Positions 1-48,688 of a stretch of 58,885 bases of DNA are shown piece after piece. The stretch lies in NCBI GenBank assembly GCA_964576705.1, contig CAZNVI010000002.1:1-58885 (forward strand), read 5' to 3'. The translations under genes were made by a program, and so were the position numbers. Under the pieces are notes generated by a model. It searched no databases. It was not told where the DNA came from and was given only the letters and a program-made list of their open reading frames with translations. The stretch comes from an uncultured Gammaproteobacteria bacterium (lineage in GTDB: Bacteria; Patescibacteriota; Microgenomatia; Levybacterales; UBA12049). The number at the start of each line of letters is the position of its first letter. Position 1 is the first letter of the stretch.

Positions 1-341
1 ATTTACCACAAAAAGACGTCCATGAGCAAGCAGTAGTGGATGGAAAAGTCGGATATTTAAAAGAACCGCTTGTGCATATCGCAGATCCCGAGTTTAAACG
101 TTACCTTAAAAGGTTTTCCAGATATACAAATCTCATGGCAGAACAGATGCGAGAAAGTAATCTCGGAAATAATCCTGCAATTGTCTTTAAATATTTATTG
201 TTATCCCCGGTTTATTGGTTTTTATTAACTTATGGAAGGCATAAGGGATTCATGGATGGATGGCAAGGTTTTATTTTCTCGCTATTTTCATCAATGCGTT
301 TTCCTGTATCATACTTAAAGTATATAAGAAAAATTATATGA
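1..341 (+). CDS. Family-2 glycosyltransferase, C-terminal fragment (5' end upstream of window)
   Basis: The frame (phase of nt 3) is open from the window edge to TGA 339-341. The tail HEQAVVDGKVGYLKEPLVHIADPEFKRYLKRFSRYTNLMAEQ...GFMDGWQGFIFSLFSS resembles the conserved C-terminal region of LPS-core-type GT2 enzymes (KdtX/WaaE-like) as I recall it. Confidence 0.6.
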   Translation, partial: LPQKDVHEQAVVDGKVGYLKEPLVHIADPEFKRYLKRFSRYTNLMAEQMRESNLGNNPAIVFKYLLLSPVYWFLLTYGRHKGFMDGWQGFIFSLFSSMRFPVSYLKYIRKII

Positions 342-1336
342 AAAATATTCTGGTAACCGGTGGAGCAGGGTATATAGGTAGTTTTATGACTAGACGCTTA
401 ATCGATGAAGGGTTTGGAGTAACTGTAGTTGATAATTTAGAACGTGGACATAAAGAAGTCGTCGATAACCGGGCTAAGTTTAAAATCGGAGATTTAATGG
501 ATCCAGCTTTCATGAATGATGTATTTTCTTCTGAAGATTTTGACGGAGTTATACATTTTGCCGGGCTGATATCAGTAGGAGAGTCTGTGGGAAAACCGGA
601 TGAGTATTTCAGGATCAACACTGTAGGGAGTCTTTTGCTTTTAGAACAAATGCGTATGAAAAAAGTAAATAAAATTATTTTTTCATCCACTGCAGGGATT
701 TACGGTAACCCTACTAAAATTCCTATACCTGAAGATCATCCTAAAAATCCGGAAAGTCCGTACGGGATGAGTAAGTTATTAGTAGAAAACGGGTTAAGTT
801 GGTATAGTAATTCATTTGGAATAAACTCCGTATCTCTTCGTTACTTTAATGCTGCCGGAGCCTCGCTTGACGGGAGTATTGGAGAGAATCATAAATTTGA
901 AACGCACATAATCCCTAATATTATTTATTCTATATTGCATAATAAGGAGTTTACTTTGTTTGGAGAGGATTATTCAACTACAGACGGGACATGTATTAGA
1001 GATTACATACACGTACTTGATCTTGTGGAAGCTCATTTGTCTGCATTAAAAAAAGTTGAAAGCGAAAATGGAAGTTTTGCGTATAACGTGGGTACGGGTA
1101 TAGGTTACAGTAATAAAGAAGTTATTTCATCAGTAGAAAAAATTACCGGAAAGAAGGTTAACCTTTCGATTAAGCCAAAAAGAAAAGGTGATGCTGAAGT
1201 TTTGATAGCTGATAATTCAAAAATTAAAAAAGAACTTAATTTTTCTCCAAAATATTCTGACCTTTCAAATATCATTGAAACAGCCTGGAAATGGCACAGT
1301 ACCAGTTCAGAATTCAAGATATCGAATTCAGAATGA
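338..1336 (+). CDS. galE: UDP-glucose 4-epimerase
   Basis: Start moved to ATG 338, which puts MKNILVTGGAGYIGS at the N-terminus and gives an ATGA overlap with the upstream stop. Motifs: SPYGMSKLLVE (YxxxK), SLRYFNAAGA, ETHIIP. Confidence 0.85.
   Translation: MKNILVTGGAGYIGSFMTRRLIDEGFGVTVVDNLERGHKEVVDNRAKFKIGDLMDPAFMNDVFSSEDFDGVIHFAGLISVGESVGKPDEYFRINTVGSLLLLEQMRMKKVNKIIFSSTAGIYGNPTKIPIPEDHPKNPESPYGMSKLLVENGLSWYSNSFGINSVSLRYFNAAGASLDGSIGENHKFETHIIPNIIYSILHNKEFTLFGEDYSTTDGTCIRDYIHVLDLVEAHLSALKKVESENGSFAYNVGTGIGYSNKEVISSVEKITGKKVNLSIKPKRKGDAEVLIADNSKIKKELNFSPKYSDLSNIIETAWKWHSTSSEFKISNSE
1306..1333 (+). repeat. Imperfect heptanucleotide tandem array (TTCARAA-like x4) at the galE 3' end / next-gene start
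   Basis: TTCAGAA TTCAAGA TATCGAA TTCAGAA, immediately followed by the overlapping ATGA stop/start. Encodes SEFKISNSE. Confidence 0.8.
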
Positions 1337-1857
1337 AACATCTACTCACTTTTTTCCTCTTATCAATGTTCGTCTTATTTTTACCGGTATCAATTGTATC
1401 TGCTCAATCAGAATATGTTTTACCTTACCCTTCAGCTATGCCCGGAAGCGTTTGGTATAAGATGGATTTAATATTTGAGCAAATTCAGAAATACTGGTAC
1501 TTCGGAGCTATATCGCAGTTTAAATATAACCTGAAACAAGCGGATAAGTATTTGGTAGAGGCGAAAACTCTTTTTGAATACAAACAATACTTATTAGCTT
1601 ATGAGGCCTTGGTTAAGTCAGATAAACATTTTAAATTTGCATCTGAGAATATTATTACGGCTGCAAAAGAAAAAAAAGACATTTCTAGCATAAAAACAGT
1701 ACTCCGAAATGCGTCTTTAAAGCATATTTCAGTTTTAGAAGAGCTTACAAAAATTACTCCCGTGACTTTTACATGGAGGCCTGAAAAAGGTTCTGCTACA
1801 AAAATCATGATTTATAAATCGTTGGATAAATCAATTGGAATTAGAAAAAACTTATGA
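1333..1857 (+). CDS. Secreted hypothetical protein (signal peptide; DUF5667-like helical domain)
   Basis: Start moved to ATG 1333 (ATGA overlap with the galE stop). MKHLLTFFLLSMFVLFLPVSIVSAQS looks like a signal peptide. LPYPSAMPGSVWYKMDLIFEQIQ resembles CPR DUF5667 N-termini from memory. Confidence 0.5.
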   Translation: MKHLLTFFLLSMFVLFLPVSIVSAQSEYVLPYPSAMPGSVWYKMDLIFEQIQKYWYFGAISQFKYNLKQADKYLVEAKTLFEYKQYLLAYEALVKSDKHFKFASENIITAAKEKKDISSIKTVLRNASLKHISVLEELTKITPVTFTWRPEKGSATKIMIYKSLDKSIGIRKNL

Positions 1858-3002
1858 AAAAAATAGTTTTTAGGTTATATGTCCTTACCGTATTTATTTT
1901 TAGTGTTTTTTCATATGTTTTTATAGATAAAAACTTAATTTACCTAAATGTTTTTTATACTGGCTTATATTCGGTATATAGGAATTATGTCGGTACTATT
2001 TATTTGACTTTATTGGTAATGCTTCATATTTTATATCTGGTACTTATTAGATTATATCTAAAAAAAATAATAGGGTATAAAGAAATTATCTTTTTAATTA
2101 CGATAACTATTATTTTACTTTTTTTTAGTTATCCGACAATTCTCTCTTACGATATTTTTAATTATATAGCCACAGCTAAAGTCGCGTTTCTCTATGGTGA
2201 AAATCCGTATGTCGTTATGCCAATAGAATTTATAAATGATCCGATTTTATTATTTATGCACGCGGCAAATAAGACTGCTCTTTATGGACCTGTATGGATT
2301 GGGCTTACTTTATTTCCGCACATTTTAGGCTTTGGCAATTTTTTACTTACTTTATTCAGTTTCAAATTAGTCATAGCAGGTTTCTATATTTTATCCAATA
2401 TATTGATTTACAAATTAGTTAAAAACTGGTTTTCTGTAATTATATTTGCTCTTCATCCTCTCGTAATAATTGAAACTTTAATAAGTGGCCATAATGACAT
2501 AGTCATGATCGGTTTAGTACTGATTGCATATCTTTTACTTAAAAAGAAGAGAATTTTATTTGCTGCGATTTTTTTATTTCTTTCGATAGGGATTAAATTC
2601 GCAACAATTTTTTTGTTACCGGTTTTTATATACGTATCAATAAATACTGTCAGAAATAAGATTGTTAATTGGTCTAAAGTTTATTATTTGTCTTCATTGG
2701 CGATGTTTATTGTATTTCTTATATCGCCATTTCGTGAAGAGATGTATCCCTGGTATTCTATATGGTTTTTTGTTTTTATTTGTCTTTCGATACCAAGTAA
2801 AAACTTGCTTGTGGTAACGTCGTTATTTCTGTTTGGGTTAATGCTTAGATATATACCTTTTTTATTTTTTGGTATTTATAGTCCTTTAGTTATACAACTT
2901 AGGACTGCAATTATGTTTTTGCCGTTATTGATTTATTTTTTAATACTTATGTTAAATAAAATTTTAAAGATAAGCTACAGTTTCATTATGGGTAAGAGTT
3001 GA
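1854..3002 (+). CDS. Polytopic membrane protein, GT-C-like (GT87/DUF2029-like)
   Basis: About 10 hydrophobic helices. Acidic first loop SYDIFNY and ISGHNDIVMIGL motif as in PimE/DUF2029-type enzymes. ATGA overlap with the upstream gene. Confidence 0.5.
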   Translation: MKKIVFRLYVLTVFIFSVFSYVFIDKNLIYLNVFYTGLYSVYRNYVGTIYLTLLVMLHILYLVLIRLYLKKIIGYKEIIFLITITIILLFFSYPTILSYDIFNYIATAKVAFLYGENPYVVMPIEFINDPILLFMHAANKTALYGPVWIGLTLFPHILGFGNFLLTLFSFKLVIAGFYILSNILIYKLVKNWFSVIIFALHPLVIIETLISGHNDIVMIGLVLIAYLLLKKKRILFAAIFLFLSIGIKFATIFLLPVFIYVSINTVRNKIVNWSKVYYLSSLAMFIVFLISPFREEMYPWYSIWFFVFICLSIPSKNLLVVTSLFLFGLMLRYIPFLFFGIYSPLVIQLRTAIMFLPLLIYFLILMLNKILKISYSFIMGKS

Positions 3003-3005
3003 ATT

Positions 3006-4667
3006 ATGCAAAAAACATTAAATATAATTTTGGAATACAAGTATATTTTTTTAGTTATTTTACTCACAATACCGGGAATCATTCCATTACTTCATCCAGG
3101 CTTACCACCAACTCATGATGGAGAGTATCATGTGATTAGATTTCATCAATTTTATAAAACTCTTTCTTCAGGAATTTTATATCCAAGATGGGCAATGGAT
3201 TTAAATAATGGCTTAGGAATTCCTTTATTTAACTATGTATATCCGCTTCCGAATTATGTGTCAGCGTTTCTATATTTTCTGGGTTTCAGTTTCATCGATA
3301 CATTTAAGCTAAATTTGTTTTTTGGAACATTGATCGGATCAGCATTCATGTACATATTATCGAAGCATTATTGGGGAGAACTGGGTGGTGTAGTTTCTGC
3401 TATAAGCTATGCTTATGTACCTTATAGATTTGTTGATATTTACATACGCGGGTCAGTAGGGGAGATTTGGGCAATTGCGTTTTTTCCGGCGTTTATTTGG
3501 TCGATTACGAAGTTAGTTGAAAAAAACACACCGAAATTTATTATTTCTTCCAGTATTTTTCTTACCCTTATAATTTTTTCTCATAATATTTTAGCAGTCA
3601 TGTTTACGCTTTTTGCGTCTTCATATTGTTTATTTTTATTATCTAGAATAGGCTGGAAAAAGCAAATCGTAAAATCAATGATTCTATCTATTCTGTTAGG
3701 AATTTGTTTACCTGCTGTCTTTTGGCTCCCAGCACTAGTCGAAAATAAACTTGTCAGAGGACTACAGATTTATTCTATAAATGATAATTTTCCTGAGTTT
3801 TACCAGCTTATTATTCCGTCATGGGGATCAGGTTTTTCTGGAAGTAATTTACTAAACCAAATGTCTTTTCAAATAGGCTTAGTACCGATAGTAATTATAA
3901 TATTAAGTATTTTGATTCTTTTTAAACATAAGCTGAACAGCCCTAAAACGTCTCATGTGTTATTATTTTTTCTGGCGTGGTTTTTTATAAGTGTAATATT
4001 CATGCTCAGATTATCTTACCCGCTTTGGATTAATATACCTTTATTAAGTTACTTTCAGTTTCCTTGGAGGTTTTTGAGCTTGACCATGGTCGTTACATCT
4101 TTTATTAGCGGCGGTATAGTTTATTCCATTTTTTCGCCTAAGTTGCAATTTGCATCCGCTGTAGTAATTATTACTCTTACAATCCTAGCAACGATTAGCT
4201 ACACAAAACCTGCCTATTATCATTACAGGGATGACAGATATTATTTAACAAAACCTAATTTTATTAATGGTACAAATAGTCCAGGAGATTTATTTAATAC
4301 TATATGGATTAAAGATACAGATCTACATAGTAAAGGTATAAAATATATGACAGGCTTTGGAAAAATTAGTAATACCGTAAATAATCCTAACTATAAAGAA
4401 TACATGATTGATTCAGGCATTAATAGTGAGGTAGAGGTTGGATTAGCCTACTTCCCAGGTTGGATTGTGCGTCAGGACGGAAAAACGATTGCGTTAAAAA
4501 AAATGGAAAATGGTTTAATCGGATTTGGAATATCGGAAGGAAAACACAACATTGAATTAATATTTCTTGATACAATAACAAGGCGTGTTGCAAGTGCTAT
4601 AACGCTTATGTCTGGTTTAGTAATCCTGAGTATATCAATCATAAGTCGTAAATTAAAACTATTATGA
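3006..4667 (+). CDS. Polytopic membrane protein, PTPS-related/GT-C-like, with ecto-domain and C-terminal anchor
   Basis: HPGLPPTHDGEYHVIRFHQFYKTL...YPRWAMDLNNGLGIPLFNYVYPLPNY matches the '6-pyruvoyl-tetrahydropterin-synthase-related' membrane family as recalled. It has more than 10 TM helices, a soluble beta-rich tail and a terminal TM (VASAITLMSGLVILSISII). Confidence 0.55.
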   Translation: MQKTLNIILEYKYIFLVILLTIPGIIPLLHPGLPPTHDGEYHVIRFHQFYKTLSSGILYPRWAMDLNNGLGIPLFNYVYPLPNYVSAFLYFLGFSFIDTFKLNLFFGTLIGSAFMYILSKHYWGELGGVVSAISYAYVPYRFVDIYIRGSVGEIWAIAFFPAFIWSITKLVEKNTPKFIISSSIFLTLIIFSHNILAVMFTLFASSYCLFLLSRIGWKKQIVKSMILSILLGICLPAVFWLPALVENKLVRGLQIYSINDNFPEFYQLIIPSWGSGFSGSNLLNQMSFQIGLVPIVIIILSILILFKHKLNSPKTSHVLLFFLAWFFISVIFMLRLSYPLWINIPLLSYFQFPWRFLSLTMVVTSFISGGIVYSIFSPKLQFASAVVIITLTILATISYTKPAYYHYRDDRYYLTKPNFINGTNSPGDLFNTIWIKDTDLHSKGIKYMTGFGKISNTVNNPNYKEYMIDSGINSEVEVGLAYFPGWIVRQDGKTIALKKMENGLIGFGISEGKHNIELIFLDTITRRVASAITLMSGLVILSISIISRKLKLL

Positions 4668-5719
4668 GGATAGCCTTAAATATTTCACCTTTATTCAGCG
4701 GACATAAAGTTCGCGGAGCAGGTTTTTATGTCGAAAGATTAAAAGAAGCGTATCTTAAATATTATTCTAAACATGAGTATGTTTTTTTTACCCGGATATC
4801 CGAACTAAATGGTAAGTTTGACGTGGTTCACTATCCGTTTTTCGATCCGTTTTTTTTAACTGCCCCTGTTTTTAAAAGATCACCCTTGGTAGTAACAATT
4901 CACGATTTAATTCCGTTAATATTTCCCCAACATTTTCCAGCAGGAATCAAAGGTAAGATAAAATGGCAAATTCAAAAAATACTATTATCCCGAACGGATG
5001 CAGTTATAACTGATTCTATTTCATCCAAGAAAGATATAAGCAGAGTTGCAGATATACACGAAGATAAAACTCATGTAATATACCTGTCTGCGGGCGAGGA
5101 GTTCAGGCAGCTTAAAAATTCAAAAAACAAATCTGATGAAATCAGAAGAAAATACAATTTGCCAAGTAAATTTGTGTTGTATGTAGGTGATGCCACTTGG
5201 AATAAAAACTTGGTTAATTTAATTAAGGCTATAGAAAAAACAGATATCCAGTTAGTTATGGTAGGAAAAGCCTTAGTAGATAAGAATATCGATGGTCATA
5301 ATATATGGAATAAAGATCTTATCGAGTCAAAGAATTTGATTCATAACAAAATTCAGTTTATAACACTAGGATTTCTGCCCACTGAAGATTTAGTCGCAAT
5401 TTATAATTGCGCCACTGTTGCGATCTTGCCTTCTTTTTATGAAGGATTCGGTTTACCGATTGTTGAAGCGATGAAATCCGGCTGTCCGGTAATCGCTTCC
5501 GATAGAGGGTCAATTCCGGAAGTAGCAGGTGACGCAGTTTTATATATAGATCCATATAATATAAATAATATTTCTGAGACGATAAACCGGTTATGTAAAG
5601 ACGCAGAACTTCGCCGAAGGTTAATTAGAAAAGGATTTATTCAAGCGGATAAGTTTTCATGGAAAAAAACAGCTGAAAATACGATAGCTTTATATGAAAA
5701 AATTAAAAAGAATTACTAA
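4664..5719 (+). CDS. Family-4 (GT-B) glycosyltransferase
   Basis: EX7E region YEGFGLPIVEAMKSGCPVIASDRGSIPEVAGD. N-domain MRIALNISPL...VTIHDLIP. ATGA overlap with the upstream gene. Confidence 0.8.
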   Translation: MRIALNISPLFSGHKVRGAGFYVERLKEAYLKYYSKHEYVFFTRISELNGKFDVVHYPFFDPFFLTAPVFKRSPLVVTIHDLIPLIFPQHFPAGIKGKIKWQIQKILLSRTDAVITDSISSKKDISRVADIHEDKTHVIYLSAGEEFRQLKNSKNKSDEIRRKYNLPSKFVLYVGDATWNKNLVNLIKAIEKTDIQLVMVGKALVDKNIDGHNIWNKDLIESKNLIHNKIQFITLGFLPTEDLVAIYNCATVAILPSFYEGFGLPIVEAMKSGCPVIASDRGSIPEVAGDAVLYIDPYNINNISETINRLCKDAELRRRLIRKGFIQADKFSWKKTAENTIALYEKIKKNY

Positions 5720-6956
5720 TAATCCTCTAATTTCAGGAAGCATTATCATTTTCAGCGGTACATTTTTAGCTAATGTCTTTAACGCTGTTTTTAATTTTTT
5801 TGCCGTTGGTCACCTAAGTGTAGTAGATTACGGAATTGTTGCAAGCTTAATTTCATTAATTTCACTTCCAGCTTATGCTGCAAATTCTATCATCCCGGCC
5901 GTGGTGCAATTCGGCGGTAAATACTTTGCCTCAAATAATTTGGCCGCCGTAGTGAGGTTGTATAGAAAAGCCGGGATATTCGTTTTATTCATAGCAGTCG
6001 TCATATTTTTATTCTTTTTAGTTTTTATTCAGCAAATCAGCGAATTTCTAAAAATTTATGATTTGACATTATTGCTTTTAACAAGTGTTATTATCTTTGT
6101 TGGCTTTTTCACCTATTTAAATTTAGGTATGCTTCAGGCTAAATTGGCATTCGTTTCTATTTCGGCTTTTAGTCTTATAGGTTCATTAACTAAGTTAACA
6201 TTAGGTGCGCTATTTATAATTTTGGCTTTTGAAGTTCGGGGTGTAATGTCTGCTATTTTATTATCAACTGTAATTCCACTATTTTTATCATTAATTCCTC
6301 TTAAGTTTATTTTTAGTAAACACATAAATAAAACCGGGACAGAAACTTCTACGAAAGAATTGATATATTACGGTACTCCATCTGCTATCGGTTTGATATC
6401 ACTTACCTCTCTCATAACTTCTGATATTCTTTTAGTTAAGCATTTTTTTAACGGGGATATTGCAGGATTGTACGGTGGATTATCATTAGCAGGTAGGGTG
6501 ATTTTTTATTTTACTGCCCCTATTGTTACTGTAATGTTTCCGCTTATTGTGAGAAAGAAAAACAATAACGAAAATTATAATACTACCTTTGCGCTTGCCG
6601 TGTTTTTAGTTCTAATTGCATCCCTTTTTATTACAGTAATTTATATGTTAATCCCGAATTTTGTTATTTTAACTTTATTAAATAAAAAAGAATATCTGTC
6701 TATCTCAAGTCAATTAGTGTTATTCGCTATAAATATTACACTTTATTCAGTAATATCGGTATTCGTGAATTTCTATTTATCTATTAAGGCGACCAGGATT
6801 TTCATTCCTGTATCTATTGCAGCAATAATTCAAATAGTTCTTATTTGTTATTTTCATAATTCTTTTTATGAAATAATCTACATAACTATAATAGTTCTAA
6901 TTGTGTTACTAATAGCTCTTTTGTTATACTATCCCTATGCGACAAAGAAAAAATGA
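5694..6956 (+). CDS. Wzx-like oligosaccharide flippase (MOP superfamily)
   Basis: 420 aa with about 12 TM helices and a basic N-terminus (MKKLKRITNNPLISGS). Typical size and topology for a polysaccharide-locus flippase, and sits in a glycan-locus context. Confidence 0.65.
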   Translation: MKKLKRITNNPLISGSIIIFSGTFLANVFNAVFNFFAVGHLSVVDYGIVASLISLISLPAYAANSIIPAVVQFGGKYFASNNLAAVVRLYRKAGIFVLFIAVVIFLFFLVFIQQISEFLKIYDLTLLLLTSVIIFVGFFTYLNLGMLQAKLAFVSISAFSLIGSLTKLTLGALFIILAFEVRGVMSAILLSTVIPLFLSLIPLKFIFSKHINKTGTETSTKELIYYGTPSAIGLISLTSLITSDILLVKHFFNGDIAGLYGGLSLAGRVIFYFTAPIVTVMFPLIVRKKNNNENYNTTFALAVFLVLIASLFITVIYMLIPNFVILTLLNKKEYLSISSQLVLFAINITLYSVISVFVNFYLSIKATRIFIPVSIAAIIQIVLICYFHNSFYEIIYITIIVLIVLLIALLLYYPYATKKK

Positions 6957-13502: not shown

Positions 13503-13546
13503 GGTGTTTGTTATCAAGTATAATCATTATTAAGTTTCTTTCTTCT

Positions 13547-16377: not shown

Positions 16378-16389
16378 AATCTTTTGATA

Positions 16390-17376: not shown

Positions 17377-17377
17377 A

Positions 17378-32173: not shown

Positions 32174-32395
32174 ATGAAAATTCAGGATTTAGCATTTGTG
32201 ATAGCTTTGGCGTTTTTATTACACAAAAAAATAAGTCCTAATTTATTAGCTTTAATAGGCATAGTTTTATTGGCAATTTCGATTCCGCTATTTTCGAGTT
32301 GGATTTTTTTTACGGCTTACCGCTTGGTATATTTTGCTGCATTATTTTTTCTCCTTTCAATTCTTCTGCATTTATATTACGCTAGGAATAAGTAA
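32174..32395 (+). CDS. Small integral membrane protein (2-3 TM), unknown function
   Basis: 73 aa and hydrophobic. Tightly packed after the GtrB-like gene. Confidence 0.45.
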   Translation: MKIQDLAFVIALAFLLHKKISPNLLALIGIVLLAISIPLFSSWIFFTAYRLVYFAALFFLLSILLHLYYARNK

Positions 32396-34689: not shown

Positions 34690-34700
34690 TTTTTGGTACT

Positions 34701-41447: not shown

Positions 41448-42353
41448 ATGCTCGACTTATCAATCATAATAGTTTCATTTAATACAAAAGAATTCTTAAA
41501 AAGTTGTTTAGAATCGATAAAAAGTGTTATTAATTCAAATCTAACTTATGAGATTATCGTAGTAGATAACAATTCGACTGACGGAAGTATAGAGGAAGTA
41601 TTAAGTAGTAAATATAAAGTATTAAGTATAAGATTAATCAAAAACAATCAAAATGTAGGATTTGCAAAAGCTAACAATATAGGCATTAGAGAAGCTAAGG
41701 GAAAATATTTATTATTTCTTAATTCAGACACAAAGATTACCTACGAGCATACCTTTGACGAAATGGTTGCTTTTATGGATCATCATGCTAATGCCGGCGC
41801 TGCGACCTGTATCGTACAATTGGAAGATGGTACTTTAGATGATGCTTCGCATAGAGGTTTCCCGACGCCATGGAATGCTTTATGCCATTTTTCTGGCCTA
41901 GGAAAATTTTTCCCGAAAAGTAATTTTTTTAACGGATATCACAAAGGTTGGAAAGATTTAGATAGGGTTCATGAAATTGACTCACTCGCAGGTGCATTCA
42001 TGATAGTGAGACGTGAAGCAGGGGAGCAAATCGGATGGTGGGACGAAGATTATTTTTTTTATGGCGAAGATATAGACTTTTGTTATAATCTGAAACAAAA
42101 AAATTGGAAGATTTACTATGTGCCTACTGTAAAAATTCTTCATTATAAAGGTGTATCAAGCGGTATAAAAGATCATTCTAAGCACTTGGCGCGTATCGAT
42201 AGCGCTGCGCGGGTAATTAATCAAAAAGCCAGATTTGACGCTATGAGAATATTTTACAAGAAACACTATATCGATAAATACCCTGGATATGTAACAGATT
42301 TGATTTTAATTGGAATTAATCTGAAAGAATGGTTAACAAATAAAAAAAAATAG
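41448..42353 (+). CDS. Family-2 glycosyltransferase (WbbL-like subgroup)
   Basis: LSIIIVSFNT...VVDNNSTDGS...NVGFAKANNIGIREAKGKYLLFLNSDT...FFYGEDIDFCYN. Confidence 0.8.
   Translation: MLDLSIIIVSFNTKEFLKSCLESIKSVINSNLTYEIIVVDNNSTDGSIEEVLSSKYKVLSIRLIKNNQNVGFAKANNIGIREAKGKYLLFLNSDTKITYEHTFDEMVAFMDHHANAGAATCIVQLEDGTLDDASHRGFPTPWNALCHFSGLGKFFPKSNFFNGYHKGWKDLDRVHEIDSLAGAFMIVRREAGEQIGWWDEDYFFYGEDIDFCYNLKQKNWKIYYVPTVKILHYKGVSSGIKDHSKHLARIDSAARVINQKARFDAMRIFYKKHYIDKYPGYVTDLILIGINLKEWLTNKKK
41596..41630 (+). repeat. Imperfect heptanucleotide tandem array (AAGTATN)x5 inside a GT2 gene
   Basis: AAGTATT AAGTAGT AAATATA AAGTATT AAGTATA. Encodes EVLSSKYKVLSI. The 16-mer TATAAAGTATTAAGTA (41613-41628) is identical to 32574-32589. 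Confidence 0.85.
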
Positions 42354-42358
42354 TAAAA

Positions 42359-42646
42359 ATGTCAATAAATTGGAGAATTTTGTTTGTAACGTTATTAGTG
42401 TTTTTTATCTATCATGCGATCCGAGATATTTTTCAAATACTTAATATTAGAGGGAACATCGTCGCTGATTTATTCAGCACGAATCATTATTGGTGTAGAC
42501 CTGTTTGTGATTATGTAACTGTTCTTCCTGAAGTAATCGGAATTTCGGGAAGTGTAATTGTTTTAAAAAGAAACAAAATCGGATTATTGAGAATTGCAAC
42601 TATATTATCATTTATCTTTATATCTATAGGATTTTTATTGCCTTAA
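42359..42646 (+). CDS. Small integral membrane protein (3 TM), unknown function
   Basis: 95 aa and hydrophobic. Tightly packed between GT genes. Confidence 0.45.
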   Translation: MSINWRILFVTLLVFFIYHAIRDIFQILNIRGNIVADLFSTNHYWCRPVCDYVTVLPEVIGISGSVIVLKRNKIGLLRIATILSFIFISIGFLLP

Positions 42647-42651: not shown

Positions 42652-43791
42652 ATGAAAATTGGAATCGATGTGAGACTTTGGAATGAGACCGGTGTAGGGC
42701 GATATATTAGAAATTTAGTAAAGCAAATTCAAATTGTTGATAAAAATAATGAGTATGTTCTCTTTGCTCGAAGTAGGGATGCTGAAAGTATCAAGGATCA
42801 AGTATCAAATATCAAATTTAAAATTGTAAAGACCGATATTAAGTGGCATAGCCTCAAAGAGCAACTGCTTTTTCCCCAGATTTTAAATACGGAAAACCTT
42901 GATCTTATGCATTTTACTTATTTTTCTTTACCTGCATTTTATAATCGGCCTTTCGTAGTCACTATTCATGATTTAATTATTAATCATTTTCCGACCGGGA
43001 GAGCATCGACATTGCCGTTACCTTTATACAAATTTAAGCATTTAGGTTACCGGATTATTTTAAATCTAGTGAGCAGAAAAGCGCGAAAAATAATCGTTCC
43101 TCTAATTTCTACAAAAGATGATTTGGTGAAAAGTTTAAAAATAACACCCGATAAAATTGTGGTTACATATGAAGGGGTAGACGAAGTTCTGGCAAAGGGC
43201 CCCACTTCGCTAAAGCTACGAGGGGCAAGCAAAGGGCAAAGGGTAAAGGGTTATGATGAATTTGGTAAGTATTTTTTGTATGTTGGGAATGCGTATCCTC
43301 ATAAAAATTTGGAAACATTGATTCAGGCATTTATGGGATTAGATAATGAGACTAAGTTACTTTTAGTCGGAAAAGAGGACTATTTCTATAAGCGTTTGGC
43401 ACTTAAAATACAGGATGCAAATGTTAAAAATATAGAAATATTACATAATGTCGATGATTCAAGTCTTCATGAGCTTTATAAAAATGCAATCGCTGTAGTA
43501 GCTCCCTCTCTAATGGAAGGATTTGGATTGGTGCCGCTTGAAGCAATGGCCAATAGATGCTTAGTTTTGGTTTCAGATATTCCATCACACAAAGAAGTAT
43601 GTAGCGATTGCGCACTATACTTCGATCCGAATAGTATTGATAGCTTAGCTAATCTGCTTGGAAAAGTTAGCGATATTAATTTTAAGCATAAGAGTAAATA
43701 CATAGATATGGGTATTAAGCGTATTAATGAATTTTCTTGGGAGAAAATGGCAGAAAGAACGCTTAAAATATATGAGCAATTTGCAAGCTAA
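42652..43791 (+). CDS. Family-4 glycosyltransferase
   Basis: MKIGIDVRLWNETGVGRYIRNL N-domain, VTIHDLII, MEGFGLVPLEAMANRCLVLVSDIPSHKEV. Confidence 0.8.
   Translation: MKIGIDVRLWNETGVGRYIRNLVKQIQIVDKNNEYVLFARSRDAESIKDQVSNIKFKIVKTDIKWHSLKEQLLFPQILNTENLDLMHFTYFSLPAFYNRPFVVTIHDLIINHFPTGRASTLPLPLYKFKHLGYRIILNLVSRKARKIIVPLISTKDDLVKSLKITPDKIVVTYEGVDEVLAKGPTSLKLRGASKGQRVKGYDEFGKYFLYVGNAYPHKNLETLIQAFMGLDNETKLLLVGKEDYFYKRLALKIQDANVKNIEILHNVDDSSLHELYKNAIAVVAPSLMEGFGLVPLEAMANRCLVLVSDIPSHKEVCSDCALYFDPNSIDSLANLLGKVSDINFKHKSKYIDMGIKRINEFSWEKMAERTLKIYEQFAS
42786..42820 (+). repeat. Imperfect heptanucleotide tandem array (AAGTATC-like x4-5) in GT4 N-domain loop
   Basis: AAGTATC AAGGATC AAGTATC AAATATC AAATTTA. 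Encodes SIKDQVSNIKFK. Confidence 0.85.
43229..43251 (+). repeat. Heptanucleotide tandem array (AAAGGGY)x3 in GC-rich linker of GT4
   Basis: GC AAAGGGC AAAGGGT AAAGGGT. Encodes SKGQRVKG within LRGASKGQRVKGYDEF. Confidence 0.85.
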
Positions 43792-44920
43792 GCGCATAGC
43801 ATTAGTTTATGATCGGGTAAATAAATGGGGTGGTGCTGAAAGAGTACTGCTGGCCTTGCATAAATTATTTCCAAATGCACCGTTGTATACCTCAGTTTAT
43901 AATAGTAAATTCGCTCGATGGGCAAATATATTTAACGTAAGAACTTCGTTTCTTCAAAAATTACCTTTGGCCTCGAACAATCATGAGTTCTTACCGCTTT
44001 TTACCCCTGTAGCATTCGAGGGGTTTTCTTTCGATAATTATGATTTAGTAATAAGTGTTACATCTGAGGCAGCTAAGGGAATAATTACGAAACCTACCAC
44101 AAAACATATTTGTTATTGCCTTACCCCCACAAGGTACCTGTGGAGCGGGTATGAGGAATATTTCAGAAATCCGGTATTAAGAAATATTAGTAAGCCTGCT
44201 GTGTCATATCTTAGAAGGTTGGATAAGATTGCTGCTCAACGTCCTGATGGATTTATAGCGATATCTGAAGAAGTCAAACAAAGAATAAAGAAATATTACA
44301 ACAGAGAATCGGAAGTAGTATATCCGCCAATAGGATTGGCAAATGGCAATCCATCAGCTCCGATTGAATCTGATCCAGCTGGCAAAAAAATGTCACATAT
44401 CAAAAGGAGAAACAGGGGTGGATATTTTTTGGTTGTATCGAGATTGGTTCCGTATAAAAAGATTGATATAGTGATTGAGGCATGTAATGAATTAAAGCTG
44501 CATCTGAAAATAATAGGGACAGGTAGCGACGAAAGAAGATTGCGTAGCTTAGCAGGTTCTGATGTGGAGTTTATCGGAACAGTTGACGATAATGAGTTAG
44601 CATCATATTATCTCTCCTGTAAAGCGTTGATATTTCCTGGAAATGAAGATTTCGGCCTGGTGATGGCAGAAGCACAAGCAGCAGGTAAGCCCGTTATTGC
44701 ATACCGTAGAGGTGGAGCCTTAGAAATAATTGCAGAAAATAAAACCGGTCTTTTTTTTGATGATCAAAATAAAATGTCTTTGATAAAAGCACTAACATCG
44801 TTTGATTCTGAATATTTTTCTTCTGACGAATGCAAGAAACAGGCAAGCAAATTTAGTATAAATAATTTTAATAAACAGTTTATTAAAACTGTAAACAGCA
44901 TAATGAATGATTTGAAATAA
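43772..44920 (+). CDS. Family-4 glycosyltransferase
   Basis: Start moved to ATG 43772 (MSNLQAKRIALVYDRVNKWGGAERVLLAL). NEDFGLVMAEAQAAGKPVIAYRRGGALEII. Confidence 0.75.
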   Translation: MSNLQAKRIALVYDRVNKWGGAERVLLALHKLFPNAPLYTSVYNSKFARWANIFNVRTSFLQKLPLASNNHEFLPLFTPVAFEGFSFDNYDLVISVTSEAAKGIITKPTTKHICYCLTPTRYLWSGYEEYFRNPVLRNISKPAVSYLRRLDKIAAQRPDGFIAISEEVKQRIKKYYNRESEVVYPPIGLANGNPSAPIESDPAGKKMSHIKRRNRGGYFLVVSRLVPYKKIDIVIEACNELKLHLKIIGTGSDERRLRSLAGSDVEFIGTVDDNELASYYLSCKALIFPGNEDFGLVMAEAQAAGKPVIAYRRGGALEIIAENKTGLFFDDQNKMSLIKALTSFDSEYFSSDECKKQASKFSINNFNKQFIKTVNSIMNDLK

Positions 44921-44954: not shown

Positions 44955-46040
44955 ATGAAAATTGTATTATTTGCAGGAGGTGTGGGTTCGAGATTATGGC
45001 CTCTGTCCAGGAAAAATAAGCCGAAGCAGTTTGGAAGAATTATAGCCAATCGCTCGATGCTTCAAATAGCTGTGCATAAGCTTTTTCCTGAATTTGCATG
45101 GGAAGATGTGTTTATCTCTACTGGTAAGGCATTTGCAGATACTGTAAGAGAGCAACTTCCGCAGCTTCCGAAAGATAACATAATTGTTGAGCCTGAGATG
45201 CGAGATGTCGGACCGGCTGTAGGACTTGTGATAGCGCAATTCATAAAGCGCTTTCCTAATGAACCTGTTGTTTTATTGTGGGGAAGTGATCACTTGATAA
45301 AAAAAGAAAGTTTATTTAGAAAGACTTTACGTGCTGCAGAAGGGATTATAGTGAATGATCCGAATAAAATAGTCTTTATTGGTCAAAAGCCTCGATTTGC
45401 CAATCAAAACGTAGGATATATCGAGTTCGGCGGTGAGCTTAAGGTAAAAAACGGTATTCAAGTTTATGCATTTAAGGATTTTCAATATGCACCGCCTTTA
45501 GATGTTGCTGAAGAATTTGCCAACGATAATCAACACGCATGGAATTTAGGGTATTTTGCGACATCTCCGGCTTTTCTTTGGGAACAGTTTGAAAAATTTG
45601 CACCTGATTTATTTTCTAAATTGAAAAAAATTAGCGATGCTTACGGAAGTGAAAATTACGAGTCAGTAATTAACGATGTATATCCAAGTATGGAAAAGAT
45701 CTCATTTGACCATGCAATCCTCGAGAAAATTGACCGGTCTTCAGGAATGGTATTATCTGTAGATTTAGGATGGAGTGACATAGGAGCATGGGAAGCTATG
45801 AAAGAAGCACTTTCGAAAACTGAAGCTGAGAATGTAACGAAAGGAAAAATAGTTCTGACTGATTGTAGAGACTCTATTTTGCATAATGAAACTTCTCAGC
45901 TAATTGTGGGAATAGATCTTGATGGCTTAGTGGTAGTTAACACTGAGGACGTGATTCTCGTTTGTCCGAAAGAATCAGTTCCAAAAATTAAAAAATTTGT
46001 AACCGGTTTGAAAGGTACGAAATACGAGTATCTCGCATGA
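44955..46040 (+). CDS. manC: Mannose-1-phosphate guanylyltransferase (nucleotidyltransferase domain only)
   Basis: MKIVLFAGGVGSRLWPLSRKNKPKQF, EPEMRDVGPAVG, LGWSDIGAWEA. Confidence 0.75.
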   Translation: MKIVLFAGGVGSRLWPLSRKNKPKQFGRIIANRSMLQIAVHKLFPEFAWEDVFISTGKAFADTVREQLPQLPKDNIIVEPEMRDVGPAVGLVIAQFIKRFPNEPVVLLWGSDHLIKKESLFRKTLRAAEGIIVNDPNKIVFIGQKPRFANQNVGYIEFGGELKVKNGIQVYAFKDFQYAPPLDVAEEFANDNQHAWNLGYFATSPAFLWEQFEKFAPDLFSKLKKISDAYGSENYESVINDVYPSMEKISFDHAILEKIDRSSGMVLSVDLGWSDIGAWEAMKEALSKTEAENVTKGKIVLTDCRDSILHNETSQLIVGIDLDGLVVVNTEDVILVCPKESVPKIKKFVTGLKGTKYEYLA

Positions 46041-46043
46041 AGC

Positions 46044-46709
46044 ATGCAGTATATCGAAATAAAAAAAAGTTTAGGTTATGAGGTATTGAAGCGGATATTA
46101 GATATCATTTCCTCGATCATACTTTTATTTTTTTTCTTACCCATAATGCTTGTTGTAGCTATTTCTATTAAGCTGGATTCTAGTGGTCCTATATTTGCAG
46201 ATACCCCCTCAAGAGTAGGAAAAAATGGTAAGCTTTTTAAAATGTACAAATTCCGTTCGATGATTAAGAATGCTCATGAACTGCTTCGGGAAGATCCTAA
46301 ATTTGCGAAACTTTATAATGATTATAAAATCGGAAGCTATAAACTGGTAAATGATCCCAGGATTACTAAGGTAGGTAGATTTATCAGAAAGCATTCACTT
46401 GATGAAGTGCCTCAGCTTGTTAATATCTTATTTGGTGATATGAGCTTGGTCGGCCCGCGGGCTTATTACCCTGATGAGATTAAAGAGCAGCAGCAAAAGT
46501 ATCCTGAAACTAAACAAGCGGTAAAAATTGTGTTATCCGTAAAACCCGGCTTGACTGGATTTTGGCAGGTTTCGGGGAGGTCTGAGGTGAATTTCGATAA
46601 GCGAATTCAGATGGATGCAGAATACGTAAAGAAAAGGTCGATTATGTATGATCTAAAAATAATTATGCTCACACCCTGGGCGATGATTTCAGGTAAGGGT
46701 GCTCGTTAA
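46044..46709 (+). CDS. Small monotopic polyprenyl-phosphate phosphoglycosyltransferase (PglC/WbaP-C-terminal type, initiating enzyme)
   Basis: KRILDIISSIILLFFFLPIMLVVAISIKLDSSGPIF, KMYKFRSM, DEVPQLVNILFGDMSLVGPR. These are the bacterial sugar-transferase signature motifs. Confidence 0.85.
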   Translation: MQYIEIKKSLGYEVLKRILDIISSIILLFFFLPIMLVVAISIKLDSSGPIFADTPSRVGKNGKLFKMYKFRSMIKNAHELLREDPKFAKLYNDYKIGSYKLVNDPRITKVGRFIRKHSLDEVPQLVNILFGDMSLVGPRAYYPDEIKEQQQKYPETKQAVKIVLSVKPGLTGFWQVSGRSEVNFDKRIQMDAEYVKKRSIMYDLKIIMLTPWAMISGKGAR

Positions 46710-46747
46710 TTTGACATGTCTATATCAAGTTGAGTATTATAGTTTAT

Positions 46748-48688
46748 ATGGCTAGCTTTGAAAAGATTGATTTGAATACTAAAAATACACTTGATAGCAA
46801 GATAGATCCTTCATTTATGAAATTAAAAAAACGTAAGAAAATAAAAACACCTTTTAAGTTGATTGGAGTAATATTAACTGTATTATTACTTTTGGGCATA
46901 TTGACTGCTATGCCTGCTTACGCTACATATAAATCCGCCAAAGCAACTTACAATCAGGCGAAGGCAATCTCTTCTGCGATGAAGCAACAAAATGTAGCAC
47001 TGGCATCAGAAGAGCTTGAAAAAACTAAACTAAGTCTCGCTGATACAAGAAAGAATTTTGACAGAATGTTTTTATTGCGTTTTATTCCAATAGTGCACTT
47101 TTATTATAACGATGCTGATCATAGCTTAAAAGCTGCTACTGAAGGCCTCAAGACTGCAACTATAGTGATTGATGCACTTAAGCCATATGCGGATGTTTTA
47201 GGATTAAAAGGTACAGGGAGTTTTTCATCCGGATCGGCTGAAGACCGTATTAAAACTGCTGTAATGACTATGGGCAAAATCACACCGCAAATTGATACAA
47301 TCGCTGATTCTCTTCTCATCGTCCAAAAAGAAATAGATGCAGTAAATCCAAATCATTACCCGGAGTTAATATTCGGTACGAAACCAAAAATGCAGCTTAC
47401 TCAGCTTAAAGACTTAACAGATCAGGGCGTTGATCTCGTAAATCAAGCGCGTCCGCTTATTAAAGTCTTACCGGTACTTCTAGGTGAGTCTGAAACTAAA
47501 AAATACCTGGTATTATTCCAGAATGATAAGGAGCTTCGTGCTACGGGTGGATTCATTACTGCATATTCTATTATAAATATCGATAAAGGTAAGTTATCAA
47601 TTGAGCGATCTGAAGATATATATGAACTAGACGAGACAGTAAGTAATAAACCTAAAGCACCCTCCCCTATACTTAAGTATCTACCCGGTGTTTCTCTTTT
47701 AAATTTGCGTGATTCAAATATTTCACCTGACTTCGTAACTTCGATGAAGACTTTTATGGAACTCTATGATGATGCAGGTCGTTCTGTTCCTGTGGACGGA
47801 ATAATAGCTATCGACACAGATGTACTAGTTTCAACCATTAAAATACTGGATGGGCAGATAACTGCGTCCGGAATCACTTTCACGACAGAAAATGATGAAA
47901 GATGTAATTGCCCTCAAGTCATTTATGTACTTGAAGACAGTATTTCAAAGCCGGTGCAATTTATAAGGGAAGACAGAAAGGGTTTAATCGGATCTTTAAT
48001 GAAAGCTATTATGGATAAAGCTTTGTCATCTTCACCGAAGCAATATTGGGGTCCACTTTTTCAGACTATGTTAGCACAAACCAACCAGAAGCATATACTC
48101 TTTTATCTCTTCGATACCGAAGCGCAAAAAGGGATTGAAGCTGTAAATGCTGCCGGGAGAATAGATCCTTTCGAAGGTGATTACTTGCATATCAATGACA
48201 CAAATTTCGGCGGACAAAAGTCAAATCTTTTCACATCGCATGCAATCGAAAACGAATATACAATCGAGAAAGACGGCAGTATTAAAAAGACAGTAACGAT
48301 AACTTATAAAAATGACTTTCCTCCATCTAATTGTAACTTGGAAGCAGGCCAGCTATGTCTTAATGCAGTTCTTAGGAACTATCTCCGCTTATATGTTCCG
48401 AAAGGAAGTGAATTAATTGACAGTAAGGGATCGCAGGTAAAAATGGTTACATATACTGATTTAGACAAGACAGTATTTGAAGGATTTTTGACGGTACGTC
48501 CATTAGGTCAGTCCAAATTCACCGTAACTTATAAACTTCCGTTCAAATTGTCTAAAAATTCACCTTTACCTGTACTTATCCAAAAACAACCCGGTACATT
48601 CGGACATGAAATGAAGGTGATATTAAACGGTAAGACTGTTGAGGAATTCAAATTATTTTCAGATAAGAAAATGCAATTGGAAGTATAA
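46748..48688 (+). CDS. DUF4012-domain membrane-anchored protein
   Basis: First ATG is at 46748. One N-terminal TM helix. YLVLFQNDKELRATGGFITAYSIINIDKGKL matches the DUF4012 core motif (N.aElR.tGG) as recalled. The adjacency to a sugar transferase is typical. Confidence 0.7.
   Translation: MASFEKIDLNTKNTLDSKIDPSFMKLKKRKKIKTPFKLIGVILTVLLLLGILTAMPAYATYKSAKATYNQAKAISSAMKQQNVALASEELEKTKLSLADTRKNFDRMFLLRFIPIVHFYYNDADHSLKAATEGLKTATIVIDALKPYADVLGLKGTGSFSSGSAEDRIKTAVMTMGKITPQIDTIADSLLIVQKEIDAVNPNHYPELIFGTKPKMQLTQLKDLTDQGVDLVNQARPLIKVLPVLLGESETKKYLVLFQNDKELRATGGFITAYSIINIDKGKLSIERSEDIYELDETVSNKPKAPSPILKYLPGVSLLNLRDSNISPDFVTSMKTFMELYDDAGRSVPVDGIIAIDTDVLVSTIKILDGQITASGITFTTENDERCNCPQVIYVLEDSISKPVQFIREDRKGLIGSLMKAIMDKALSSSPKQYWGPLFQTMLAQTNQKHILFYLFDTEAQKGIEAVNAAGRIDPFEGDYLHINDTNFGGQKSNLFTSHAIENEYTIEKDGSIKKTVTITYKNDFPPSNCNLEAGQLCLNAVLRNYLRLYVPKGSELIDSKGSQVKMVTYTDLDKTVFEGFLTVRPLGQSKFTVTYKLPFKLSKNSPLPVLIQKQPGTFGHEMKVILNGKTVEEFKLFSDKKMQLEV

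Follow-up and report, generated by a model that had tools for sequence, protein, structure and literature searches.

What does a bacterium with a small genome build with ten large membrane proteins of the glycosyltransferase (GT) fold class GT-C, all encoded in one gene block? The question is raised by positions 1–48688 of contig CAZNVI010000002.1 (assembly GCA_964576705.1), analyzed here as part of a stretch of 58,885 bp with a GC content of ~33%, which is referred to as the window. An earlier sequence-only reading had described these positions as a surface-glycan locus of about 47 kb with about ten GT-C-type membrane enzymes in a probable member of the candidate phyla radiation (CPR). We scanned all open reading frames (ORFs) of at least 100 amino acids (aa) in the window against Pfam and selected sets against NCBIfam. 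The gene content confirmed a surface-glycan locus of ~47 kb with about 40 genes for sugar handling, and the inventory given in the sequence-only reading was right nearly item by item. We propose, with a probability of roughly 0.6, that the locus encodes the conserved machinery by which a Levybacteria-type (Microgenomates, CPR) bacterium assembles a complex glycoconjugate of its cell envelope. The best reading of the pathway is an undecaprenyl-pyrophosphate (Und-PP) repeat-unit route joined to heavy extracytoplasmic glycosylation from polyprenyl-phosphate-linked sugars. Genes are named below by their lower coordinate.

Polytopic proteins and the GT-C fold

All ten polytopic proteins that had been listed as GT-C candidates received some GT-C support, either from Pfam, from structure, or from family and profile comparisons:

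1854–3002 (+): GT-C enzyme, remotely MptA/GT87-like, 10 transmembrane (TM) segments; MptA model 3e-8 and GT87 model 16.5 bits, both below cut-off
3006–4667 (+): GT-C enzyme of the PTPS_related/YfhO type; PF10131 54.2 bits against a cut-off of 26.4, YfhO C-terminus 7.7e-9, PgfM1 C-terminus 1.9e-7
11970–13466 (−): GT-C enzyme of a family without a Pfam or NCBIfam model; 38% identity to 13547, row of alignment A1
13547–15025 (+): GT-C enzyme of the unmodelled family of 11970, fold resembling STT3/PglB; AlphaFold2 model and Foldseek
15022–16377 (+): GT-C enzyme of the PMT_2 family; PF13231 57.0 bits against a cut-off of 26.1, FDEF after the first TM segment
21757–24051 (+): GT-C enzyme, remotely PMT_2-like, with a large C-terminal part predicted to be extracytoplasmic; family and profile evidence, ADEW
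24715–28110 (+): GT-C enzyme of 1131 aa, remote AftD/YfhO type, with a predicted extracytoplasmic region of ~650 aa and a C-terminal TM segment; profile evidence
28453–30366 (+): GT-C enzyme, YfhO/AftD-like below cut-off; YfhO 3.6e-5, GT-C_AftD 3.6e-4, paralog of 24715
35581–38787 (+): two-domain protein with a WaaL/Wzy_C-like half (~1–560) and a GT-C half (~570–1068); family scans, AlphaFold2, Foldseek and hhalign
38784–40235 (+): GT-C enzyme of the PMT_2 family; PF13231 39.9 bits against a cut-off of 26.1

Nine of these proteins had 8–10 hydrophobic segments, and the two-domain 35581 had 19. An acidic motif was present soon past the first hydrophobic segment in 10/10, for example FDEF in 15022, ADEW in 21757, GDDF in 35581 (residue 607), HDGE in 3006, HDAG in 24715, and GVDVW in 13547/11970. 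The acidic residues were invariant in alignments as Asp38 and Glu39 of 21757, Asp607 and Asp608 of 35581, and Asp61 of 13547, in which Asp29 was near-invariant. The loop bearing the motif would be the first extracytoplasmic loop, its side of the membrane being a prediction.

Three of the proteins scored above a Pfam cut-off, namely 3006 (PTPS_related) and 15022 and 38784 (PMT_2). The PMT_2 cut-off was reached neither by 21757 nor by the C-terminal half of 35581. In the 21757 family, 6 of 34 relatives matched PMT_2 (best 1e-5), and profile–profile alignment with hhalign linked this family to the C-terminal half of 35581 with a probability of 99.5 over 386 columns and to the 3006 family with a probability of 85.8. 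The two AftD/YfhO-like proteins, 24715 and 28453, were paralogs (BLASTP 1.5e-11); an hhalign probability of 100% between them was dropped as evidence because 28453 is a row of A4, the alignment of the 24715 family that holds this paralog as one row. Matches to PF11847 (GT-C_AftD) were found in 6/9 rows of A4 (best 1.6e-7) and, precomputed, in the 24715 ortholog of the related locus L041. There was no match to this model at E ≤ 0.01 for 24715 itself, 28453 scored 19 bits against a cut-off of 26, and a search with the 24715 family reached the PDB sequence of AftD only at E 2.5. The 24715 family was also linked by hhalign to the PTPS_related family of 3006 (probability 96.8), and its size was 2456 representative clusters (50% identity) at E ≤ 0.001.

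The weakest GT-C case among the ten was 1854, which scored 16.5 bits with PF09594 (cut-off 25) and 33 bits with TIGR03459 MptA (cut-off 439). These scores indicate that 1854 is related to GT87 and MptA–MptB, not that it is a member by those models. Its syntenic homolog in the related locus L002 carried PF26314 (MptA_B_family). In the all-against-all local hhalign comparison, no link of the 13547 family or of 1854 to the others was detected, and the comparisons of A2 with 15022 and of A1 with A2 were uninformative. Searches of the PDB with single sequences or profiles of 24715, A1, A2, A4, A5, 1854, 15022, 38784, 3006, and 19410 returned nothing meaningful.

Neither 13547 nor 11970(−) matched any Pfam or NCBIfam model, nor did any of the 120 homologs listed for 13547 have a precomputed Pfam domain. 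The AlphaFold2 model of 13547, made from the 29-sequence alignment A1 of the 13547/11970 family, had a predicted local distance difference test score (pLDDT) of 90.2 and a predicted TM-score (pTM) of 0.88. When this model was compared with the PDB by Foldseek, the top 33 matches were all GT-C enzymes; STT3 was best (E 1e-6, TM-score 0.62) and was followed by DPY19, AftA, PglB, AglB, ArnT, AftD, ALG9, Pmt4, and AftB. Transporters appeared only at E > 0.4 with a probability below 0.1, which contradicted the possibility that such polytopic proteins are transporters. None of the ten resembled a transporter, and neither profile nor structure searches placed most of them among transporters or unrelated folds. 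The A1 profile found no STT3, PglB, or AglB oligosaccharyltransferase in the PDB, and the family consensus had no WWDYG-type motif. Because of this lack of a sequence match and of the motif, the 13547 family is not a member of the STT3 family; only its fold resembles that of the oligosaccharyltransferases. The GT-C link of 11970(−) runs only through its identity to 13547. The two genes are separated by a divergent intergenic region of 80 nt, with ATG at 13547 as the likely start of the plus-strand gene. A TTG at 13508 was considered as the start and rejected, since the homologs, at 490–495 aa, point to the ATG. The 11970-type gene was the commoner paralog and was always divergently oriented.

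The protein 35581 (1068 aa) is, on model and profile evidence, a predicted fusion of a WaaL/Wzy-like domain to a GT-C domain. Its AlphaFold2 model had a pLDDT of 73.6, with a better C-terminal half and low-confidence loops in the N-terminal half. Foldseek matched it to STT3/PglB-type GT-C enzymes and, with a probability of 1.0 and a TMt of 0.57 but an E value of 0.06, to WaaL (7tpg_B). Among its relatives, 21 of 28 matched Wzy_C (best 1e-6) and 3 of 28 matched PMT_2. These structural and family matches, together with the alignment of the C-terminal half to the 21757 family, led us to regard 35581 as a fusion. Support for the Wzy_C-like domain named in the sequence-only reading came from the relatives and from the resemblance of the model to WaaL; 35581 itself had no Wzy_C (PF04932) match at E ≤ 0.01. 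Fusions of the 35581 type are widespread, with >1300 database relatives. Enzymes of the WaaL/Wzy type have also been classed as having a GT-C fold (Meitil et al., PMC10920833); 35581 would therefore join a module that uses a lipid-PP-oligosaccharide to a module of the type that uses a lipid-P-monosaccharide.

Conservation, gene content and setting of the locus

Scanning of the GTDB species representatives with A1 gave 35 loci, which belonged to metagenome-assembled genomes (MAGs) labelled Levybacteria and to MAGs labelled Daviesbacteria, the latter with an 11970-type copy alone. The proximal half of the locus was syntenic in many Levybacteria MAGs and in parts in Daviesbacteria-labelled MAGs. 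The recurring order began with GT2, GalE, DUF5667, MptA-like, PTPS_related, GT4, Wzx, GT2, and GT4, continued with aminotransferase/GNAT, 13547-type, and 11970-type (always on the opposite strand), and ended with methyltransferase, GT2, 21757-type, methyltransferase, AftD-like, small membrane protein, and YfhO-like. In two further genomes (L041 and L042), the distal half (AftD-like gene through DUF4012 gene) had an almost one-to-one match, including a membrane ORF of 73 aa and a stand-alone GT4 N-terminal half. Identity among homologs was 53–75% in the 13547 and 35581 families and ~29–46% in the 21757 and 24715 families. Because Levybacteria MAGs repeatedly contain homologs in nearly one-to-one gene order, the locus is lineage-conserved and is not a hypervariable island. 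The gene set was not fixed, as relatives had added GT-C genes or were without some. A weakly Mannosyl_trans2-like protein of 374 aa and a PMT_2 protein of 583 aa (4278–5402 and 11485–13236 in L002), as well as an ORF of 535 aa without a Pfam match (16774–18381, minus strand, in L042), were absent from the window; these extra genes indicated that the GT-C complement varies around a conserved core.

The named homologs of 13547, 21757, and 35581 came from Candidatus Levybacteria/Levyibacteriota or "Patescibacteria group" MAGs, and with Daviesbacteria these were the labels that upheld the proposed CPR origin; they did not point to an ordinary Firmicute or Actinobacterium with a known wall-polysaccharide cluster. 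The window also matched a Logan assembly of run SRR8893623, and a protein identical to 21757 is recorded on a contig of 72.6 kb from NCBI and Logan. Many third-party annotation MAG records that carry a Levybacteria/Daviesbacteria-type locus (L009, L011–L015, L017, L018, L020–L024, and others) are titled "uncultured Gammaproteobacteria" or "Pseudomonadales". Such titles are uninformative and seem to be placeholders or misassigned taxonomy.

The genes of the locus other than those for the ten polytopic proteins were as follows:

3–341 (+): GT2-like C-terminal end, truncated by the window start; frame-3 translation, phmmer 3e-47 to 3e-33 against ORFs of ~255–290 aa that directly precede the GalE homolog in loci of Levybacteria
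260–1336 (+): UDP-glucose 4-epimerase GalE; TIGR01179 (NCBIfam) 389 bits against a cut-off of 262
1291–1857 (+): membrane-anchored DUF5667 protein, conserved neighbour of the first GT-C gene; PF18915 1.2e-8, one TM segment, position kept in relatives
4664–5719 (+): GT4 glycosyltransferase; PF00534 1e-32
5694–6956 (+): Wzx-like flippase; PF13440 30.1 bits against a cut-off of 23, 14 hydrophobic segments
6937–7755 (+): GT2, possibly a weakly PgfS/PpgS-like polyprenyl-phosphate-sugar synthase, no TM segment; PF00535 1e-24, PgfS 3e-15, PpgS 5e-14
7779–8807 (+): short-chain dehydrogenase/reductase (SDR), NDP-hexose 4,6-dehydratase-like; TIGR01181 1e-54, below cut-off
8937–10058 (+): GT4 glycosyltransferase; PF00534 8.6e-39
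10085–11968 (+): sugar 4-aminotransferase (PseC/ArnB-like) fused to a WecD-like GNAT N-acetyltransferase; PF01041 1e-133, PF00583 4e-17, PseC 2.5e-119, ArnB 8.7e-117, WecD 3.6e-28
16384–17376 (+): UDP-GlcNAc 4,6-dehydratase-like protein (PseB/FnlA type); PF02719 3.5e-95, PseB 3.8e-93
17378–18514 (+): GT4 glycosyltransferase; PF00534 6.5e-18
18511–19428 (+): RmlD-like 4-keto-sugar reductase; PF04321 1.7e-46
19410–20702 (+): membrane-anchored BNR/Asp-box beta-propeller-like protein; one N-terminal TM segment, SKNDGNTW, BNR_2 in 3/5 family members (best 6e-6)
20693–21745 (+): GT2 with a hydrophobic C-terminal anchor; PF00535 4.8e-28, hydrophobic stretch 254–292
24029–24718 (+): S-adenosylmethionine-dependent methyltransferase; PF13489 4.8e-20
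28094–28456 (+): small membrane protein, 3–4 TM segments; no Pfam or NCBIfam family match, position between two AftD/YfhO-like genes kept
30372–31241 (+): dTDP-4-dehydrorhamnose reductase RmlD; TIGR01214 262 bits against a cut-off of 224
31245–32168 (+): polyprenyl-phosphate sugar synthase (GT2 of the ArnC/PgfS/GtrB type), two C-terminal TM segments; ArnC 1e-49 at full length, PgfS 6e-40
32174–32395 (+): conserved membrane ORF of 73 aa; phmmer 5e-20 (L042) and 9e-14 (L041) to ORFs in the equivalent position
32427–32966 (+): stand-alone GT4 N-terminal half-domain protein, 179 aa; PF13439 5e-9, orthologs of 178–180 aa at 3e-73 and 4e-72
32972–34093 (+): GT4 glycosyltransferase; PF00534 1.5e-37
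34096–34689 (+): hexapeptide-repeat acyltransferase; PF00132 7.6e-17
34677–35555 (+): GT2 glycosyltransferase; PF00535 2.5e-26
40232–41443 (+): GT4 glycosyltransferase; PF13692 5.6e-19
41448–42353 (+): GT2 glycosyltransferase; PF00535 2.4e-26
42359–42646 (+): hydrophobic ORF of 95 aa, unverified as a gene; no counterpart in L041 or L042
42652–43791 (+): GT4 glycosyltransferase; PF00534 3e-28
43727–44920 (+): GT4 glycosyltransferase; PF00534 4.8e-29
44955–46040 (+): mannose-1-phosphate guanylyltransferase ManC (GDP-mannose supply); PF00483 and ManC beta-helix, TIGR01479 2e-65
46044–46709 (+): small PglC-type polyprenyl-phosphate phosphoglycosyl transferase (PGT), initiating enzyme, 221 aa; PF02397 3.2e-61, WbaP/EPS catalytic domain 9e-75, one TM segment
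46730–48688 (+): membrane-anchored DUF4012 protein, conserved last gene of the locus; PF13196 79 bits against a cut-off of 28, equivalent position in L041 and L042

The six GT2 genes, one of them partial, were found as described (6937, 20693, 31245, 34677, and 41448 with PF00535, and the C-terminus at the window start). The Wzx-like flippase 5694, the PglC-type transferase 46044, and the DUF4012 protein 46730 were likewise found, as were the methyl- and acetyltransferase functions (the methyltransferase 24029, the hexapeptide acyltransferase 34096, and the GNAT domain fused in 10085) and the seven nucleotide-sugar enzymes (260 GalE, 7779, 10085, 16384, 18511, 30372 RmlD, and 44955 ManC). Seven intact GT4 genes were also present (4664, 8937, 17378, 32972, 40232, 42652, and 43727), but the additional GT4 "fragment" proved to be a conserved stand-alone gene in relatives. 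Gene debris or a pseudogene was ruled out for this ORF (32427–32966) by its orthologs in the equivalent position; in other Levybacteria, these orthologs stood directly ahead of a complete GT4 gene. The protein is possibly the GT-B half of a split enzyme, or an accessory one, and by analogy recalls the Alg13/Alg14-type division. The NCBIfam scan gave no equivalog-level name for the GT2 and GT4 genes or for the DUF4012 protein.

Three further genes encode possible accessory proteins. DUF5667 was detected in 2/9 rows of A4 besides the stand-alone protein 1291, and its position both beside the first GT-C gene and inside A4 rows suggests an accessory role with GT-C enzymes. The protein 19410, which was kept in several related loci, is a possible extracytoplasmic beta-propeller with a role in glycan binding or trimming. 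The small membrane protein 28094, which had no GtrA match in Pfam or NCBIfam, is a putative flippase or accessory subunit.

The sequence-only reading had counted 29 consecutive co-directional ORFs from 13547 to 48688. This number was reproduced when two small hydrophobic ORFs (32174–32395 and 42359–42646) were counted; otherwise there were 27 ORFs of at least 100 aa. These two ORFs occupied the sole long gaps in the run; only the first (73 aa) was conserved, and the second (95 aa) may not be a gene. The tight packing also held, with a largest gap of 34 nt when the small ORFs were counted and 4-nt overlaps at six junctions, and it is compatible with long transcripts. Scans for promoter and terminator consensus sequences gave counts equal to the shuffled expectation. 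Beyond 48688, the plus-strand run went on into the genes for RecO and an aminoacyl-tRNA synthetase and into the dcw cluster, and the GC skew was positive in every 2-kb bin of the window. The co-directionality was therefore not specific to the locus and is weaker as evidence for one operon. When ORFs of at least 100 aa were taken as genes, all but two in the whole window lay on the plus strand, and skew and strand bias together fit a leading-strand position. The GC content was level through the locus and its flanks alike, and scans of the window for tRNA genes and Rfam families were empty.

Upstream, the locus reaches beyond the window start, where the GT2 gene is truncated. Downstream (48692–58826) lie genes for a short RecO (181 aa) and a class II aminoacyl-tRNA synthetase, the dcw cluster with MraZ, MraW, an FtsL-like ORF (52837–53118), FtsI, YdjM, and two Mur ligases, and a gene with a tRNA-binding domain on the minus strand (55060–55485). 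The glycan locus thus abuts genes for the cell wall and cell division.

Proposed pathway and alternative explanations

The families and folds of the parts and the conservation of gene order are observations; the order of steps, the donor sugars, and the roles of individual GT-C enzymes in the following scheme are predictions. Nucleotide sugars would be made in the cytoplasm, the likely products being UDP-Gal/Glc, GDP-Man, a dTDP-rhamnose-type sugar, 4-acetamido-4,6-dideoxyhexose, and 2-acetamido-6-deoxyhexose. Given ManC and RmlD, mannose and rhamnose are likely donors. The PGT 46044 would begin an Und-PP-linked unit, which the seven GT4 and several GT2 enzymes would lengthen, with O-methylation and acylation added, and which Wzx 5694 would flip over the membrane. 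The WaaL/Wzy-like half of 35581 would then polymerise the unit or ligate it to an acceptor. In parallel, the ArnC-type GT2 31245 would place single sugars on polyprenyl phosphate, as 6937 and the anchored 20693 may also do, and once these lipid-P-sugars are flipped, the ten GT-C enzymes would draw on them for extracytoplasmic elongation and branching of the polymer. Candidate acceptors are a wall polymer, a lipid anchor, and a protein.

The use of polyprenyl-phosphate-linked donors by the ten polytopic proteins is predicted from the context of the ArnC-like synthase 31245. Two such synthase-like GT2 enzymes had been named earlier. The assignment was good for 31245 (full-length ArnC match and two TM segments), but only weak for 6937, which had PgfS and PpgS matches and no TM segment. 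The gene for the anchored GT2 20693 adjoined a homolog of the GT-C gene 21757 in nearly all loci having both. Wzx 5694 is a flippase candidate, though it may serve the Und-PP unit rather than the lipid-P-sugars. Because Wzx, the GT2 6937, a GT4, the SDR 7779, 10085, and 13547/11970 share a conserved neighbourhood, the arrangement suggests a possible Arn-like sub-module that would present 4-acetamido-4,6-dideoxyhexose on polyprenyl phosphate to GT-C enzymes.

Several findings weigh against this scheme. There is one convincing lipid-P-sugar synthase GT2 for ten GT-C enzymes, and the GT-C assignments of 1854, 21757, 24715, and 28453 are remote matches below cut-off. The Pfam scans detected no chain-length regulator (Wzz/polysaccharide copolymerase, PCP), LytR-CpsA-Psr (LCP)-type wall ligase, ATP-binding cassette exporter, or GtrA flippase among the window ORFs. 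The WaaL/Wzy-like domain of 35581 could equally be that of a protein O-oligosaccharyltransferase.

This last point leads to an alternative that we consider unlikely, in which the locus serves general protein glycosylation: a glycan linked to Und-PP would be moved en bloc onto an S-layer (surface-layer) protein or type IV pilins via the Wzy_C-like domain of 35581 or via 13547/11970, and the PMT_2 GT-C enzymes would add more sugars. The O-oligosaccharyltransferases of the PglL/PilO type belong to the WaaL/Wzy_C family that 35581 matches, the best Foldseek matches of 13547 were the oligosaccharyltransferases STT3, PglB, and AglB, and PMT_2 enzymes are present in the locus. Gram-positive S-layer glycosylation clusters contain a WbaP-like initiator, rhamnosyltransferases, a methyltransferase, and a Wzy_C-type transferase, and CPR cells bear S-layers and abundant pili, both of which favour this explanation. 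However, the 13547 family is without a WWDYG-type motif, its profile finds no STT3 or PglB in the PDB, and its likeness to STT3 may reflect just the shared GT-C(A) architecture, as ArnT, AftA, AftD, and DPY19 were matched too. In addition, ten GT-C, seven GT4, and five or six GT2 enzymes far exceed the content of known protein-glycosylation loci, and no gene for a target protein was evident in the locus.

A membrane-anchored lipoglycan of the lipomannan/lipoarabinomannan (LM/LAM) type, in which a glycolipid primer would be extended outside by polyprenyl-P-mannose-dependent GT-C enzymes (MptA-, PMT_2-, and AftD-like), appears less probable still. ManC would provide the GDP-Man, an ArnC/Ppm-like synthase is present, 1854 is MptA/GT87-like and 24715 and 28453 are AftD-like, and the lack of an LCP ligase in the window agrees with such a product; yet every match of the actinobacterial type was remote and below cut-off, the Pfam scans of the window gave neither a PimA/PimB-type primer pathway nor an Emb-type enzyme, and the PGT, Wzx, and WaaL/Wzy-like parts indicate an Und-PP-linked block pathway.

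An ordinary strain-variable O-antigen or capsule island whose polytopic proteins are mostly transporters or unrelated would account for the PGT, Wzx, Wzy_C-like domain, and many GT2 and GT4 genes typical of islands and for the polytopic proteins without a Pfam match of their own, but it is very improbable and already contradicted by the gene order and 53–75% identity (13547 and 35581 families) kept over many species-level genomes, by the structure and profile evidence for GT-C with transporters only at a probability below 0.1, and by the flat GC content over locus and flanks.

The conserved assembly line for an envelope glycoconjugate remains our preferred explanation. An extended form of it, which we put forward as a doubtful proposal, is that the product is a core polymer defining the Levybacteria/Microgenomates lineage and is assembled mostly outside the membrane by about ten GT-C enzymes, like mycobacterial arabinogalactan and LAM. 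In that form, 13547/11970 would be a new STT3-like en bloc transferase to protein (S-layer or pilin) or wall, and the WaaL/Wzy–GT-C fusion would couple ligation or polymerisation to extracytoplasmic glycosylation.

Comparison with known systems

The CPR, or Patescibacteria, make up a very large share of bacterial diversity, are attached to or dependent on other cells, and have a surface chemistry that is essentially unknown. Their genomes are typically ~1 Mb. If this holds here, ~5% of the genome is devoted to one conserved glycan locus, which suggests a product with a central role in the cell envelope and probably in contact with a host or partner. Many of the proteins are now labelled "hypothetical protein", and the unmodelled GT-C family with its confident predicted structure and candidate catalytic residues, the WaaL/Wzy–GT-C fusion, and the large family of AftD-like enzymes of ~1100 aa offer handles for work on them. 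In the literature on Patescibacteria, Levybacteria, and Microgenomates with GT-C, glycosyltransferase, or mannosyltransferase, we found no description of the locus or of its GT-C content. DUF4012 has been reported as a CPR-enriched family linked to an exopolysaccharide (EPS) cluster, and many membrane proteins of unknown function are enriched in Microgenomates (Méheust et al., PMC6744442).

The closest working analogues were the Gram-positive multi-component glycosylation systems (CsbB/GtcA/YfhO, GacI-L, and lactococcal Csd) and the rhamnose cell wall polysaccharides (Rha-CWPS) (PMC8035078, PMC10821137, PMC11127046). The scheme established for Gram-positive wall polymers has three components: a membrane-linked GT-A enzyme for synthesis of the C55-P-sugar, a flippase for its translocation, and a GT-C enzyme for transfer of the sugar on the outer side (PMC8035078). 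The locus shares with these systems a predicted C55-P-sugar-type GT2 with C-terminal TM segments (31245), GT-C enzymes of the PMT_2/YfhO/PTPS_related type, which would act outside the membrane, adjacent GT2 and GT-C genes (20693/21757), and the predicted combination with a polymer built in the cytoplasm; Wzx 5694 is a candidate for the flippase. It differs in its CPR host, in having no GtrA-family match in the window, and in its number of GT-C enzymes: those systems have one to three GT-C decorators, whereas a single conserved block here encodes ten, several of which have very large domains predicted to be extracytoplasmic.

The nearest analogue for a polymer assembled largely on the outer side of the membrane by many GT-C enzymes was the arabinogalactan and LM/LAM of mycobacteria and corynebacteria (Emb, AftA-D, MptA/B, and PimE). 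In both cases, many GT-C enzymes share few lipid-P-sugar donors and the genes are lineage-conserved, and remote AftD-like and MptA-like members occur here. Unlike the actinobacterial pathway, the locus has Wzx, a WaaL/Wzy-like domain, and a small PGT, and the Pfam and NCBIfam scans of the window ORFs gave no Emb/AftA/AftB-type enzyme and no decaprenyl-P-arabinose pathway. The resemblance to arabinogalactan and LAM assembly put forward in the sequence-only reading thus holds in mechanism but not in family membership, where the AftD- and GT87-like matches were below cut-off. Wzx, the WaaL/Wzy-like domain, and the PGT are parts that also occur in O-antigen and capsule clusters, and Gram-positive multi-component systems are equally close (PMC8035078).

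Wzx/Wzy loci for O-antigen, capsule, or secondary cell wall polysaccharides (SCWPS) and S-layer slg clusters likewise have a PGT, GT2 and GT4 enzymes, Wzx, nucleotide-sugar genes, a methyltransferase, and acetyltransferases, and for their enzyme of the Wzy_C family the present locus has a candidate counterpart in 35581. In contrast to them, this locus has its Wzy_C-like domain fused to GT-C, no Wzz/PCP was found in it, its GT-C content is extreme, and it is conserved. The STT3/PglB/AglB enzymes (GT66) were the best structural match to 13547 (TM-score 0.55–0.62), with which they share a polytopic core, a C-terminal alpha/beta domain behind it, and conserved Asp residues in the first loop. Unlike these enzymes, 13547/11970 have no sequence similarity to them and no WWDYG-type motif, their C-terminal domain is only ~110 aa, and ArnT, AftA, and DPY19 match 13547 nearly as well. 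Loci for envelope glycan biosynthesis that include extracytoplasmic GT-C steps are already known as a kind of system, and the product here is most likely a complex cell-surface glycan so far undescribed. The novelty lies in the scale, with ten GT-C enzymes encoded by a single conserved block in a small genome, and in a GT-C family that no profile model covers, a widespread WaaL/Wzy–GT-C fusion, and the CPR host.

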